Positions 36,193 to 64,000 of a stretch of 64,000 bases of DNA are shown here, one piece after another. The stretch's first letter is position 1, and each line of letters starts with the position of its first letter. Origin of the DNA: an uncultured Candidatus Saccharibacteria bacterium. Lineage in GTDB: Bacteria; Patescibacteriota; Minisyncoccia; RBG-13-40-8-A. Below the pieces are notes generated by a model that saw nothing but the letters and a program-made list of their open reading frames with translations, had not been told where the DNA came from and did not search any database. A program made the translations under genes and the position numbers. The DNA lies in NCBI GenBank assembly GCA_965231075.1, contig OZ246412.1, positions 385,587-449,586 on the forward strand. Reading direction: 5' to 3'.

Positions 36193-36303
36193 AGTCTACC
36201 CCTCCCATCGCTCTGGTTTTTCGCTCTACTATATATGACGAATGAAAAGCCGTTTTGTTACACTCTTATTACGGTTTTAATTACATGTGTAATACTAACA
36301 CAT

Positions 36304-36867
36304 TTATGATTCATTGTCAACTTCTGAAAGGTGCTTTTTTAACGATACCAATCCCCTATGAATTAATACTCTAATTGCCCCCGCTGACTTGTCTAAAATC
36401 TTAGCAATTTCGGGAACCGATAACTCATCAATATAATACAAAATTAAAACATCTTGATATTCTTCTTTTATATTGGTTAGAGACTTATGAATCTGATCAG
36501 CAATCTCCTTGGAAGATATCTCGTCCTTGGCGGGTTCTTCGTTTAAAAATATATGGAAATCGTCTCCCATAAATATGTCCTGTGAACTTTTCTTTTTGTA
36601 GTAATCAGCAATTAAATTTCTTGCAACTTTGTATAATAATGCCTGAAAACTTTCTTCAATCGTATTGGCTTTATCGGTTAAATATTCGTAGATCCTCAAA
36701 AAAGATTCTGACGACAAATCTTCTGCTAAAACTTGCGATCTAACTTTGAGGCGAATAAAACGAAAAAGCTTCGTGGCATATAAATCATAAAGCTGGCCAA
36801 AGGCCTCTTTATTGCCCGAAGCGACTTGAGAAAGTAACTCTTTTTCGTTGTCGATTGTTGCACTCAT
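36304..36867 (-). CDS. ECF-type sigma-70 family RNA polymerase sigma factor
   Basis: Region 2 (LYDLYATKLFRFIRLKV) and region 4 HTH (LSVPEIAKILDKSAGAIRVLIHRGLVSLKK). Confidence 0.8.
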   Translation of the reverse strand: MSATIDNEKELLSQVASGNKEAFGQLYDLYATKLFRFIRLKVRSQVLAEDLSSESFLRIYEYLTDKANTIEESFQALLYKVARNLIADYYKKKSSQDIFMGDDFHIFLNEEPAKDEISSKEIADQIHKSLTNIKEEYQDVLILYYIDELSVPEIAKILDKSAGAIRVLIHRGLVSLKKHLSEVDNES

Positions 36868-36898
36868 GTTACAGTTTTAGTATAACATAAAAAAATGA

Positions 36899-36934
36899 GG
36901 GCTAGCAACTCCGCGACCGCGGAGTTGCTAGCCC
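36899..36934 (-). terminator. GC-rich perfect hairpin terminator for the GC-rich small gene
   Basis: gggctagcaactccgcg / cgcggagttgctagccc inverted repeat, followed on the minus strand by CUCAUUUUUUUAUG. Confidence 0.65.
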
Positions 36935-36945
36935 GAAAAAGAGCT

Positions 36946-37254
36946 TCACTTCATGATGAAGGGCCTGGCCTGACTCTTCAGCCAGAACAGATCCTTTGCC
37001 AGGGGGACATCGCCCCCGTCGGCGAGAGCGGTTCGGAACCCGACCACCGAAGACGTATCCTGGCCAACGCCGATGAGCGTGTCGATGATCTTGTCCCGGC
37101 TTCTGGTCGCCAGTTCAAGGATCTCCGCCTTGCTCAGCGTCTTCGAGGCCAAGATCACGTTGTCGACCGCGACGTCCACGGGCTGGGCCCATGGAAACTT
37201 CACGCCCGTCAAATCGATGGTTCCGATACCGACTTCGACTCCGATCTTGTCCAT
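36946..37254 (-). CDS. GC-rich (about 60% GC) 102-aa hypothetical protein with a strong SD; foreign-looking
   Basis: Minus strand reads GAAAGGAGTCCTT ATG GAC AAG ATC..., i.e. SD AAAGGAG about 6 nt before the ATG. The codons are dominated by C/G-ending triplets, unlike the rest of the window. A terminator hairpin follows. The ORF track lists a longer 36946..37269 version. Confidence 0.5.
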   Translation of the reverse strand: MDKIGVEVGIGTIDLTGVKFPWAQPVDVAVDNVILASKTLSKAEILELATRSRDKIIDTLIGVGQDTSSVVGFRTALADGGDVPLAKDLFWLKSQARPFIMK

Positions 37255-37369
37255 AAGGACTCCTTTCAAAAAGTGACTTTAAAATACCCCGTGAAGGATA
37301 TTTTGTTATTTACATTATAGCCCCTAAATAATGTTTTGTCAACCCCGACGCAAAAGGTCGGGGCAAAAA

Positions 37370-61656: not shown

Positions 61657-61706
61657 ACTTTTTATCATAAACATATTATACCATAAATACAAAAACAAAT
61701 AAAAAC

Positions 61707-61742
61707 GAGGAGTTGCCGTGTTTTTAACACTAACAACTCCTC
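61707..61742 (-). terminator. Terminator hairpin of the GC-rich lipoprotein gene
   Basis: 9-bp stem gaggagttg / caactcctc overlapping the stop codon, followed on the minus strand by GUUUUUAUUUGUUUUUG. Confidence 0.55.
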
Positions 61743-62278
61743 TACTGCTTTTCAAAAACGATCAAGCCCTCATGGGTGATCCAGAAACCGCCCATTTTGC
61801 CGTCGCCCACGACGCCATCGGTCCATTCTCGGATGTCATTAGGGTAGAGAGCAGACAGAGGAATTTCTTTCCTGTCGTACGCTTGACCAGTTTCCCAGTC
61901 CACGGTAGACAAGATAACGATCGTGGCCACCAGATCAGACGTGGAGTCTTGACCATCGTACCGAGCTCCGTCAGCAACGAAAATTTTGTACATCAAGTAG
62001 TCGTTGTTTTCCCAGAGCATGGAGGATAGATTTTCGGAAAAATCATAATCTCCATTTCTGAAAAAGTCAACCTTTCCTAGCTTAGTTTGTTCCTGATAAA
62101 CCAAGCACGGAGGAGTTTTGAATAGCTGGTCCGGACTCTTCACGTCCGTCCGCCTGTACTCCACGAACAGCTTGAACTGCTTTTTGGTGTTGGGATCGCT
62201 GGGGCCAGTGGGAAACACAGAGTCCTGGCAACCCCAAAACACCAACAGCATGAGAATCAGGATCACAATCTTTTTCAC
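61742..62278 (-). CDS. GC-rich (about 50% GC) putative lipoprotein, GTG start
   Basis: Signal peptide with a Cys (MKKIVILILMLLVFWGC). GGAGA 6 nt before the GTG. Codon usage unlike its neighbours. Confidence 0.5.
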   Translation of the reverse strand: MKKIVILILMLLVFWGCQDSVFPTGPSDPNTKKQFKLFVEYRRTDVKSPDQLFKTPPCLVYQEQTKLGKVDFFRNGDYDFSENLSSMLWENNDYLMYKIFVADGARYDGQDSTSDLVATIVILSTVDWETGQAYDRKEIPLSALYPNDIREWTDGVVGDGKMGGFWITHEGLIVFEKQ

Positions 62279-62499
62279 GGTGATTCTCCATCACTCCTCA
62301 CGTTTTGGCGTGGGGTTGCCTCACTCGTAGTGGGCTTGTAAATCATTGGGCTTGATGCCCATTATGTATGTAAAGATACAAATAAATGTACTCGCTCATT
62401 TCGCTCAATTTTTCGCTCAATTCAGCTCTATTTTGTTTTGTTTATAGTATACTCTTAAATAATTGACTTGTCAATGGATATTTGGTAAAATTAAGACAT

Positions 62500-62838
62500 A
62501 TGAAAAGCGAAAATCGAGATAAAAAAACTAAATTTATACCAAAAAGTGCGAAAGAAGAACAGAGAATATTATTAAACGATAATGAATTTTTCGCGCAAAC
62601 AAAAAAATATTTAAAACCATTAATATTGTCATCCATAAATCTATTTGATTTATCGGAAGACGTGGCAACTGAATTGTTTTGGAAAATTACAAACGACATT
62701 CCTATTGCTGCCAGAAGATTTTTGGAGCACAACGAACCACAAAGAAGTTATAGATTCTCAACATATTTTGGTTGGTATATCGGCCAAAAAATAAACAAAA
62801 TAAAAAAATTAAAAAGAAAGGGACCATCAAAGCAGTGA
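62500..62838 (+). CDS. Small sigma-70 region-2-like protein (truncated sigma-factor-like), apparently leaderless
   Basis: RSYRFSTYFGWYIGQKI resembles the sigma-70 region 2.2 consensus (rFSTYa.wWIrqaI), but the protein ends about 15 residues later. -35 TTGACT (62463-68), 17-nt spacer, -10 TAAAAT (62486-91), ATG at 62500. Confidence 0.4.
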   Translation: MKSENRDKKTKFIPKSAKEEQRILLNDNEFFAQTKKYLKPLILSSINLFDLSEDVATELFWKITNDIPIAARRFLEHNEPQRSYRFSTYFGWYIGQKINKIKKLKRKGPSKQ

Positions 62839-62849
62839 TGGTCCTTTTT
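62821..62849 (+). terminator. Bidirectional terminator hairpin overlapping the stop codon
   Basis: ggaccatc aaagcagt gatggtcc followed by ttttt. Confidence 0.6.
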
Positions 62850-62856
62850 CGAGATT

Positions 62857-63063
62857 TCAGTCGTCTTTTTTGCCACCCCTGAACACCGAAAAGATTGCCG
62901 AAAGGATTGAGCCCGTTTCGGAATCGCTCGTCTTGTTGTCGTTTCTTTCGTCGAGATGACCCGAACCGGCCGCATCGTCTCGAGCGTCGTGCCAAGCCTG
63001 ACTTACTTCCCTGGAAGAAGACTTGGTTTCCTTGGCCGTGTCCTTTTCCGTCCATTTGGGCAT
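62857..63063 (-). CDS. GC-rich 68-aa acidic hypothetical protein
   Basis: AAGGAGA 6 nt upstream of ATG (63061-63). Shares a conserved upstream leader with the lipoprotein gene. The ORF track lists a longer 62857..63084 version. Confidence 0.4.
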   Translation of the reverse strand: MPKWTEKDTAKETKSSSREVSQAWHDARDDAAGSGHLDERNDNKTSDSETGSILSAIFSVFRGGKKDD

Positions 63064-63227
63064 CGCAACTCTCCTTTGCCTCACTCGTAGTGGGCTTTGT
63101 CGATCGGGGACCCTACGGGTCCTTATGTATATAAAAGGTACTAATTAAAGTACTCGTTTTTTCTGTATCTTTTTATGCTTATATTATCATCACCAATAAA
63201 TTTCGTGTCAAGGAAAAATGGTGAATT

Positions 63228-64000
63228 TTATGGCGCTACTGTGTTGGACCAGTCCGATATTTGTCCAGCACTATTTTTAGTTCTAACTTTATAATAATAT
63301 AATGTGTCCCAATTAAAATTACCACTGGTCGTATATGACCCTCTTTCTCCGGAATTAATAATTTGACTGTGCCAACCAGTGTTGTCTTCGGGAGAAGAAA
63401 AAGTGCTGTTGTTATCAACTAATACCTGATATTCCGCTTGTGGATTACCCGCTGGGTCGGTATATTTCCAGCTGATTACCGGATGTCTGGAATCATTACA
63501 ATAATAAAAAATATAATCTAACTCGGTCGGTGGAAAAGCTGATCCCGATAAATTGTTTATTTTCACCTTATAATTAACTTTTGTAAAACTTGCCGTAACT
63601 GTAAAACTAGATGTTGGTGTGGTATAAATATTTGTATATTGTCCACCAGCGTCTATGGCATTATCAGTAATTTTTGCGTAATAGCTGTGCCCTCCCGCCG
63701 AATATGGACCGCCCGTATAAGAACAAGTGGTTAGGTTATTACAAGTTTTTATTAAAACATTATCGACATACATTTCTATTTTTTGTACTCCTGACAAATT
63801 ATCTGAGGCCGTAACCGAAAAAGCTACAGTTTGCGAGGTATTGGGACTTGCCGGTAAATGAGAAATTGTTCCCGTGGGTAGGGTTTTGTCAATGCCCACC
63901 CAGTTATATGATGAATTTGATGGCGATTTATTCCCCGTTAAATTATGTTCATCTTCGCCCCATGATTGCCAATAATATTCACCTTCATTTAGTGATAATC
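63228..64000 (-). CDS. Partial secreted Ig-like/fibronectin-like surface protein; the N-terminus lies beyond the window end
   Basis: I translated the reading frame by hand upstream of the ORF-track GTG (63899) and it stays open to position 64000. The product is Thr/Ser/Tyr-rich and beta-strand-like. Confidence 0.45.
   Translation of the reverse strand, partial: LSLNEGEYYWQSWGEDEHNLTGNKSPSNSSYNWVGIDKTLPTGTISHLPASPNTSQTVAFSVTASDNLSGVQKIEMYVDNVLIKTCNNLTTCSYTGGPYSAGGHSYYAKITDNAIDAGGQYTNIYTTPTSSFTVTASFTKVNYKVKINNLSGSAFPPTELDYIFYYCNDSRHPVISWKYTDPAGNPQAEYQVLVDNNSTFSSPEDNTGWHSQIINSGERGSYTTSGNFNWDTLYYYKVRTKNSAGQISDWSNTVAP

Follow-up and report, generated by a model that had tools for sequence, protein, structure and literature searches.

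The window analysed here is a stretch of 64,000 nucleotides of a Candidatus Saccharibacteria contig (OZ246412.1), which is AT-rich, at ~33-35% GC. Two GC-rich genes lie close to its end on the minus strand, one encoding a lipoprotein and the other a small acidic protein, and between their upstream regions a sigma-like gene runs on the plus strand, convergent with the small-protein gene. The surroundings of these cassettes consist of cellular genes, including the tRNA synthetase genes alaS and pheT as well as pilus and surface-protein genes. Each of the two GC-rich genes is preceded by a copy of the same promoter and leader module, referred to as copy A for the lipoprotein gene and copy B for the small-protein gene. 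This module is real, is not the product of chance, has not been described before and has a very narrow distribution. The features of the locus, together with three further copies of the module found outside the window (C, D and E), are listed in Table 1.

Table 1. Genes, promoters and leader elements at the locus, with the copies of the module found elsewhere; positions are those of the window unless a contig is named (P0 to P3, hairpins; SD, Shine-Dalgarno sequence)
Feature	Position	Strand	Description
Terminator hairpin of lipoprotein cassette	61707..61742	-	homologous to the hairpin after the L001 homolog
GC-rich lipoprotein gene	61742..62278	-	178 aa, GTG start, GC 0.484, GC3 0.615
Copy A, hairpin at SD	62280..62294	-	GUGAU-GGAGA-AUCAC, SD GGAG in the loop; conserved in L013 and L001
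Copy A, P3	62296..62315	-	CC-CACG-ccaaaa-CGUG-(A)-GG; second hairpin of P2-like architecture, beside the SD
Copy A, P2	62316..62337	-	predicted fold GCC-CACU-acg-AGUG-(A)-GGC, hairpin with bulged A
Copy A, P1	62347..62361	-	TGGGC-ATCAA-GCCCA, directly 3' of ...ATACATAA
Copy A, CATACATAA motif	62362..62370	-	junction of AT-rich and GC-rich leader parts
Copy A, P0	62375..62392	-	AGTAC-ATTTATTT-GTATC, possible small hairpin or direct repeat; 5' part of the block
Copy A, tandem repeats	62392..62420	-	three (TT)GAGCGAAA-type repeats; AT-rich 5' part of the leader
Copy A, promoter	62446..62474	-	TTGACA-17-TATACT, sigma-70-type, 11/12 consensus positions
Sigma-like gene between A and B	62500..62838	+	112-aa stand-alone protein resembling sigma-70 region 2.3/2.4
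Terminator hairpin	62821..62844		common to the convergent small-protein and sigma-like genes
GC-rich small-protein gene	62857..63063	-	68-aa acidic protein, pI 5.3, GC 0.531, GC3 0.609
Copy B, Shine-Dalgarno	63069..63075	-	AGGAGAG
Copy B, P2	63076..63097	-	ends directly at the SD
Copy B, P1	63108..63122	-	GGACCC-GTA-GGGTCC, directly 3' of ...ATACATAA
Copy B, TATACATAA motif	63123..63131	-	
Copy B, P0	63138..63154	-	AGTAC-TTTAATT-AGTAC
Copy B, promoter	63183..63211	-	TTGACA-17-GATAAT, sigma-70-type
Copy C	L006, 5527-5680		~3.5 kb past the window end, same genome; precedes the gene of a 400-aa signal-peptide protein
Copy D	L013		another metagenome; leader of an ortholog of the lipoprotein cassette, 22-mer 22/22 identical
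Copy E	L014		ortholog of C

The lipoprotein reading frame has GGAGAA 6 nt upstream of its start and carries a signal peptide and lipobox (MKKIVILILMLLVFWGC). Its GTG start, which had been proposed from the sequence, is upheld by the homologs in L013 and L001, both of which have ATG at the same position, and is favoured over the shorter public annotation (P0001, 169 aa); the ribosome-binding site and the terminator hairpin are likewise common to the window gene and L001. The small protein represents a real gene family, recognised by the invariant motif VS.AWHDARDDAA, and its gene is missing from the public gene calls. None of the cassette proteins falls into a Pfam or NCBIfam family, and only two or three homologs of each were found among 5.8 billion proteins. 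Because homologs are so few, structure prediction was poor, and the AlphaFold models, with pLDDT 39.6 for the lipoprotein and 31.5 for the copy C protein, were unsuitable for a fold search.

The two upstream regions in the window can be aligned over ~90 nt as one homologous module, as the sequence-only reading had maintained, and the positions that it gave for the conserved block, the hairpins, the ribosome-binding sites and the start codons all proved correct. A near-consensus promoter of the form TTGAC(A/G)-17-TATAAT, -TATACT or -GATAAT (11-12 of 12 positions) stands 25-65 nt upstream of the block in all five copies, and in copy A it lies back-to-back with the promoter of the sigma-like gene in a TTGACTTGTCAA palindrome. 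When both strands of the whole window are counted, sites matching at least 11 of 12 positions number 10, where 3.6 would be expected; the remaining eight of them precede leaders of only ~10-60 nt, and the 90-230 nt leader of the module is unusually long for this genome. The block at 62362-62394 and 63123-63156 had been regarded as the likely promoter, a role that now appears unlikely, given the better sigma-70 promoter upstream in every copy and the variable spacing within the block. For these two reasons the block is read here as part of the 5' leader, and the block, hairpin P1 and the 22-mer are most likely all parts of a leader of 90-230 nt.

The order of elements 3' of the promoter is 0-3 GAGCGAAA-type repeats, P0, TTTAC with ATACATAA, P1 (in A-D), a linker with P2 (in A, B and D), and the Shine-Dalgarno sequence. 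The GAGCGAAA-type motif is present in one or two copies in C, D and E; it also occurs once at the ECF sigma operon at 36226. P0 (AGTAC-loop-GTAC(T)) has conserved arms and a loop of 4 or 8 nt, with no covariation, and such kept arms around a variable loop would be more in keeping with a hairpin in RNA than with a dimeric DNA operator of fixed spacing. In copy D, ~100 nt flanked by CCCTGCA/TGCAGGG are inserted between P0 and the ATAA motif.

The two hairpins that follow differ in the manner of their conservation. P1 is 15 nt long and keeps the same register in A-D with four different sequences, which extends to four versions the structure-preserving change first seen in the two window copies: 5 of its 6 pairs are changed on both sides. 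Across these copies 95.8% of cells are paired, a value that none of 500 shuffles equalled, and pairing drops to 17-54% once the 3' arm is slid. In L003 and L025, leaders of the small-protein gene that are unrelated to this one likewise contain small GC-rich hairpins of 6-3-6 form, and P1-like hairpins may be generic. P2, by comparison, corresponds to the 22-nt identical element AAGCCCACTACGAGTGAGGCAA reported earlier, whose two occurrences, at 62316-62337 and 63076-63097 on the minus strand, are the only matches in the window even when 3 mismatches are allowed (0 expected, none in 100 shuffles). It is identical at 22 of 22 positions in A, B and D, that is, in two genomes, without covariation, while the linker and the downstream sequence diverge. 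This pattern indicates that the 22-mer is under constraint, and invariance between differing flanks points to sequence-specific recognition rather than to shape alone. The predicted fold of P2 has a free energy of -8.2 kcal/mol (z -3.4), and for the P1-P2 segments of A, B and D two independent hairpins are predicted (z -3.2 to -4.1). A leader peptide was rejected since the 18-codon open reading frame in A has no counterpart in B-E, and a terminator or attenuator was rejected since U-tracts are missing.

The additional copies were obtained from fetched contigs of cassette-protein homologs and by scanning metagenomes with an 18-nt core, and they bring the total to five, beyond the two copies in the window. 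The contig of copy D (L013) is AT-rich and syntenic with the window, with the lipoprotein gene followed by a large surface protein of the same type. Several copies lack individual elements: P2 is absent from C and E, and P1 is absent from E through a 19-nt deletion. The ortholog of the copy B gene in L003 has the same gene order with a largely different leader, without P0, ATACATAA and P2, which implies that the module can be gained or lost independently of the gene. These losses further imply that no single element is indispensable. An end in L003 that combines TATACATAA with GC-rich sequence was considered as a sixth leader and rejected, as it corresponds to the 3' end of a C-type gene read in antisense.

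The wider search for which the sequence-only reading had called thus added copies C, D and E, and it yielded none more in ~250 kb of related sequence or in IMG/VR. The exact 22-mer had no match in genome contigs or viral contigs, and of the seven matches of the 18-mer in metagenome contigs one was a true copy (L013) and six were chance matches within GC-rich coding sequence. The degenerate P0...ATACATAA pattern gave 94 matches in IMG/VR, none with other leader features. A covariance model, also suggested earlier, was built from P1, the linker and P2 (R1); it recovered only its three training copies in 247 kb comprising the window and related loci, and only training copies in the window with filters off. 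The leader was likewise absent from 10 Patescibacteria MAG loci around relatives of the sigma-like gene, and an additional 4.3 kb of the same genome contained no further cassette. The resulting sample, 3-5 copies from ~3 genomes, is below what statistics of the R-scape type require. Rfam 15 gave no match at the gathering threshold in the whole window, and an E-value threshold over 61700-63300 returned chance-level matches only (E at least 2, at most 20 bits against cut-offs of 40-376), none of them on the leader.

The genes behind the leader share an unusual composition. Both window genes are compositionally foreign, as had been stated, with GC3 of 0.615 and 0.609 against 0.23-0.34 for the native genes around them. 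When the question of whether the downstream genes are always GC-rich was extended to the other copies, all five leader-bearing genes turned out to be GC-rich orphans with GC3 of 0.51-0.62 (0.55 for the copy C gene). A gene at 36946-37254, previously grouped with them as a third cassette, is indeed GC-rich (GC 0.595, GC3 0.81), but it has a perfect TTGACA-17-TATAAT promoter only and no shared leader, and it stands outside the leader-bearing set.

Homologs without the leader are found on GC-richer contigs that do not look like CPR sequence (L001, 47% GC; L004, 51%; L015-17, 50-56%), which would agree with acquisition from GC-richer bacteria. Such acquisition has been described for Patescibacteria (PMC12455944). 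The CPR side would then have supplied, or retained, the promoter and leader of native style. For the small protein, the idea of a simply recent acquisition is not borne out: in distant Patescibacteria, too, its gene is conserved beside the sigma-like gene and is GC-elevated, even in a genome of 26% GC, so that its composition is not simply a sign of recent arrival.

Taken together, these observations are best explained, with a probability of about 0.5, by a lineage-specific promoter with a long 5' untranslated leader carrying cis-acting RNA hairpins, placed before several GC-rich, foreign-looking genes of exported or small proteins and duplicated or recombined within one narrow group of AT-rich genomes of Patescibacteria type. 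The leader is accordingly proposed as a candidate cis-regulatory RNA rather than a promoter, and action as RNA is favoured over a DNA operator because of the variable loop lengths and the compensatory changes. Transcription would start at the near-consensus sigma-70 promoter, and the GAGCGAAA repeats, AGTAC...GTAC, ATACATAA, P1 and P2 would all be transcribed. P1 appears to be selected for shape only and would most likely act as a determinant of mRNA processing or stability beside the AU-rich ATACATAA. P2 appears to be selected for its exact sequence and, with its degenerate twin P3 in copy A, would most likely be the site at which a putative trans-acting protein or RNA docks to set translation or stability; P2 of copy B abuts the ribosome-binding site.

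An unlikely alternative, essentially the view taken in the sequence-only reading, makes the block a further promoter of specialised type that needs an activator or an alternative sigma factor. The GAGCGAAA motifs would then be activator sites, AGTAC and ATACATAA would be -35-like and -10-like elements, and transcripts would begin at P1, acting as a 5'-terminal stabiliser. As expected of a second promoter, AGTAC and the end of ATACATAA stay almost equally far apart despite internal rearrangements (31 nt in A and E, 32 nt in B, 35 nt in C), although the spacing in C is 3-4 nt off and D has ~100 nt inside the block, with P1 and P2 nevertheless kept. The direct GAGCGAAA repeats of copy A have a period of 10-12 nt, and in E the Shine-Dalgarno sequence follows directly 3' of the block, which would give a short leader like that of most genes here. 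A gene for a sigma region-2-only protein sits between A and B; however, this family is widespread in Patescibacteria and the block was not found beside it elsewhere. In addition, the ATACATAA elements have no hexamer in common that carries the A at -11 and the T at -7, both near-invariant, a start 6-7 nt after any -10-like hexamer would fall within P1 and cut its 5' arm, and the upstream sigma-70 promoter, otherwise purposeless, is kept in all copies.

Somewhat less probable is the explanation that the shared sequences are a scar of arrival or copying without a regulatory role, left by local duplication, by gene conversion of promoter regions or by the ends of a hairpin-using mobile element, such as a passenger element of the IS200/IS605 type. 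The GC-rich sequence begins exactly after ATA(A) in all copies, TTTATGTATAT, the reverse complement, stands right after the stop codon in C-type cassettes and is missing in the GC-rich homolog, and the module is modular in that single elements can be lost. An IS200-like Y1 transposase fragment adjoins the lipoprotein homolog in L001/L002; the only Y1_Tnp fragment is on the non-CPR contig L002. Neutral decay, on the other hand, cannot produce 22/22 identity in three copies from two genomes beside a compensated and almost fully changed hairpin; there is no transposase and no target duplication, A, B and D have no 3' inverted repeat, and hairpins of 5-6 bp are far shorter than known element ends. 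It is quite improbable that a transcription factor uses the 22-mer, perhaps along with the GTAC repeats, as a DNA operator and so blocks or modulates transcription 3' of the promoter. The sequence of the 22-mer forms an imperfect palindrome (GCCCACT-acg-AGTG-a-GGC) and, as operators are, is invariant rather than covarying, but its half-sites differ by an inserted base, it lies at a variable distance of 85 to ~230 nt downstream of the promoter, the GTAC arms shift spacing by 4 bp, which would rotate the half-sites, and the neighbouring P1 evolves as a paired structure that is meaningless in duplex DNA. A long shot, finally, is that the module serves as a portable 'domestication adaptor', with the CPR lineage repeatedly placing a native promoter and leader before genes taken from GC-richer neighbours or hosts. 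The insertion junction would then be marked by ATACATAA, which flanks C-type cassettes as an inverted pair, and the hairpins, together with the boxA-like GUACUUUUA repeats, would shield poorly adapted transcripts of foreign origin against decay or early termination; if true, this would amount to a dedicated xenogene expression system in an ultra-small genome.

To our knowledge, next to nothing is known of how Patescibacteria (CPR) regulate their genes, and recognisable regulators are very few in them. If real, the structured leader common to these acquired genes of surface or exported proteins would be among the first candidate cis-regulatory RNAs specific to this group and would offer a handle on how episymbionts express genes taken from other bacteria, a value limited by the tiny copy number and by the unassigned function of the regulated proteins.

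Several known systems resemble the proposed RNA leader in part. Riboswitches, known from many representatives, have a conserved aptamer of several helices in which junction or loop nucleotides are invariant; here, P0, P1 and P2 are separate simple hairpins without a junction, present in 3-5 copies, and no expression platform, be it an alternative terminator or a helix that sequesters the Shine-Dalgarno sequence, was recognised, as no U-tract follows P1 or P2 and the Shine-Dalgarno sequence is predicted to be unpaired or to lie in a loop. Other hairpins act as translational operators through a specific RNA-binding protein that represses or activates on binding, among them the MS2/R17 coat-protein operator and the operators of ribosomal-protein mRNAs. 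P2 is like them in being short, with a single bulged A and a fixed sequence, and in lying by the ribosome-binding site in B (as its twin P3 does in A); it differs in standing 40-50 nt from the Shine-Dalgarno sequence in A and D and in having no sequence similarity to them, and its binding protein is only putative. The 5' UTR hairpins for stabilisation or processing include those of the ompA, aprE and ermC leaders and the RNase Y sites defined by a downstream hairpin; a stabiliser of the 5'-terminal kind stands only a few nucleotides from the mature 5' end. P1 recalls these through its position directly after an AU-rich stretch and its free sequence with kept pairing, whereas the predicted primary start lies 60-200 nt upstream of P1, so that a processing step has to be assumed.

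Systems of mobile genes provide further comparisons. The attC sites of integrons are imperfect inverted repeats of ~55-140 nt that lie 3' of the cassette reading frame and carry R''/L''-L'/R' core sites (GTTRRRY), with an integrase and attI nearby. Foreign-looking single genes in a row and a folded element with pairing conserved over sequence are common to integron cassettes and the present case, but here the folded element measures 15 nt, lies on the 5' side of the gene and has no GTTRRRY core, each gene has its own promoter, and the neighbouring genes that were examined yielded no integrase domain. Elements of the IS200/IS605 type (Y1 HUH) have subterminal hairpins at both ends and a fixed target tetranucleotide at the left junction, with TnpA nearby or elsewhere. 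In 4 of 5 copies a left-junction hairpin follows ATAA, and terminator hairpins stand on the right, a pattern that any gene with a leader hairpin and a terminator would show. Phage morons are self-contained units of promoter, gene and terminator with atypical composition, and each cassette likewise comes with a strong promoter and a terminator of its own and differs from its neighbours in base composition; morons, however, have no common leader, and the cassettes lie among cellular genes rather than in a prophage, with only chance matches to the leader pattern in IMG/VR.

Variable surface lipoprotein genes of Mycoplasma (vlp/vsp type) have conserved 5' regions, with a slippage-prone promoter tract that switches expression and several paralogous genes in each genome. 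Unlike these genes, the present ones have no homopolymer or short-repeat tract for phase variation in the promoter, where no homopolymer lies between -35 and -10, one lipoprotein copy per genome was seen (only one in ~76 kb), and the leader also serves a non-lipoprotein gene (B). The likeness lies in a conserved promoter, 5' UTR and signal peptide joined to a divergent mature region: between A and D the DNA of the promoter-leader and of the signal peptide is conserved, while the mature proteins are ~32% identical over part of their length. Both cases, moreover, concern surface proteins in small wall-less or reduced genomes.

A gene for a sigma-like protein is located between the two leader-bearing cassettes of the window, and its product is, as judged by sequence similarity, a putative stand-alone sigma region-2 protein. 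It belongs to a family of proteins of approximately 100 aa, represented by 103 cluster representatives that are mostly from Patescibacteria. Its members show a single detectable resemblance, to primary sigma factors in region 2.3/2.4 (profile E 3e-4), where YKFSTYFTWYI aligns with FKFSTYATWWIRQ. The top PDB matches of the family are all SigA, RpoD, or RpoS. Such a protein is reminiscent of RsoA, part of the split sigma factor SigO-RsoA in B. subtilis (PMC8103513). At window 62463-62474, the promoters of the lipoprotein gene (-) and the sigma-like gene (+) have their -35 elements back-to-back, and these together make up the palindrome TTGACTTGTCAA.

The association of the small VS.AWHDARDDAA protein gene with the sigma-like gene is conserved in distant Patescibacteria, which suggests that the two proteins form a functional pair. 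At every locus, the small-protein gene is elevated in GC, including 45% GC within a genome of 26% GC, and each copy has a 6-3-6 hairpin in its leader, differing from copy to copy. The public gene set likely contains two problems in this region: this gene is missing from the calls, and the lipoprotein (61742-62278, -) is called as 169 aa, 9 codons short, so that the signal peptide loses its charged start.

Coordinates of genes, gene pairs, and repeat sites (L-numbers denote other contigs)
Feature	Contig	Position	Strand	Remarks
Sigma-like gene	window	62500-62838	+	112 aa, between two cassettes
Small VS.AWHDARDDAA protein gene	window	62857-63063	-	adjoins sigma-like gene
Small-protein/sigma-like pair	L003	241-447/460-780
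Small-protein/sigma-like pair	L025	2460-2648/2838-3128
Small-protein/sigma-like pair	L026
Small-protein/sigma-like pair	L005
GC-rich gene	window	36946-37254	-	GC 0.595, GC3 0.81 (region 36834-37345)
TTTATGTATA/ATATACATAAA sites	L006	5620-5640, 6885-6905
TTTATGTATA/ATATACATAAA sites	L014	135-150, 1347-1362
TTTATGTATA/ATATACATAAA site	L003	1180-1195

In the C-type cassettes (of the kind behind leader copy C), TTTATGTATA(T) stands directly 3' of the stop codon and matches, over 10-13 nt, the reverse complement of ATATACATAAA in the leader; the homolog of high GC in contig L015 does not have it. The pair could represent an inverted repeat on the two sides of the GC-rich insert, or it may allow the 5' and 3' UTRs to pair.

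The GC-rich gene at 36946 lacks both a family match and the shared leader; its promoter, TTGACA-17-TATAAT at 37342, is perfect, and its terminator (36895-36930) is long and rich in GC. An ECF sigma factor gene (36304-36867) follows directly downstream. Between this ECF gene and the next gene (273 aa), GAGCGAAAAACCAGAGCGA (36205-36230, -) resembles the leader's GAGCGAAA repeats.

Leader copy D is split between P0 and the ATAA motif by an insertion of about 100 nt (L013 1809-1905), possibly a miniature element, with the inverted heptamers CCCTGCA/TGCAGGG flanking it. The lipoprotein homolog on the contig of 47% GC appears frameshifted, and approximately 460 nt from it lies a piece of the C-terminal part of an IS200-like Y1 transposase (L002 9-200, -; L001 about 1670-1860; Pfam Y1_Tnp, E 2e-5). 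In the same genome, approximately 10-14 kb past the window end, a radical-SAM gene adjoins the gene of a large protein with a faint match to the lanthipeptide-dehydratase N-terminal region (L122 345-4451), which may constitute a peptide-modification cluster.
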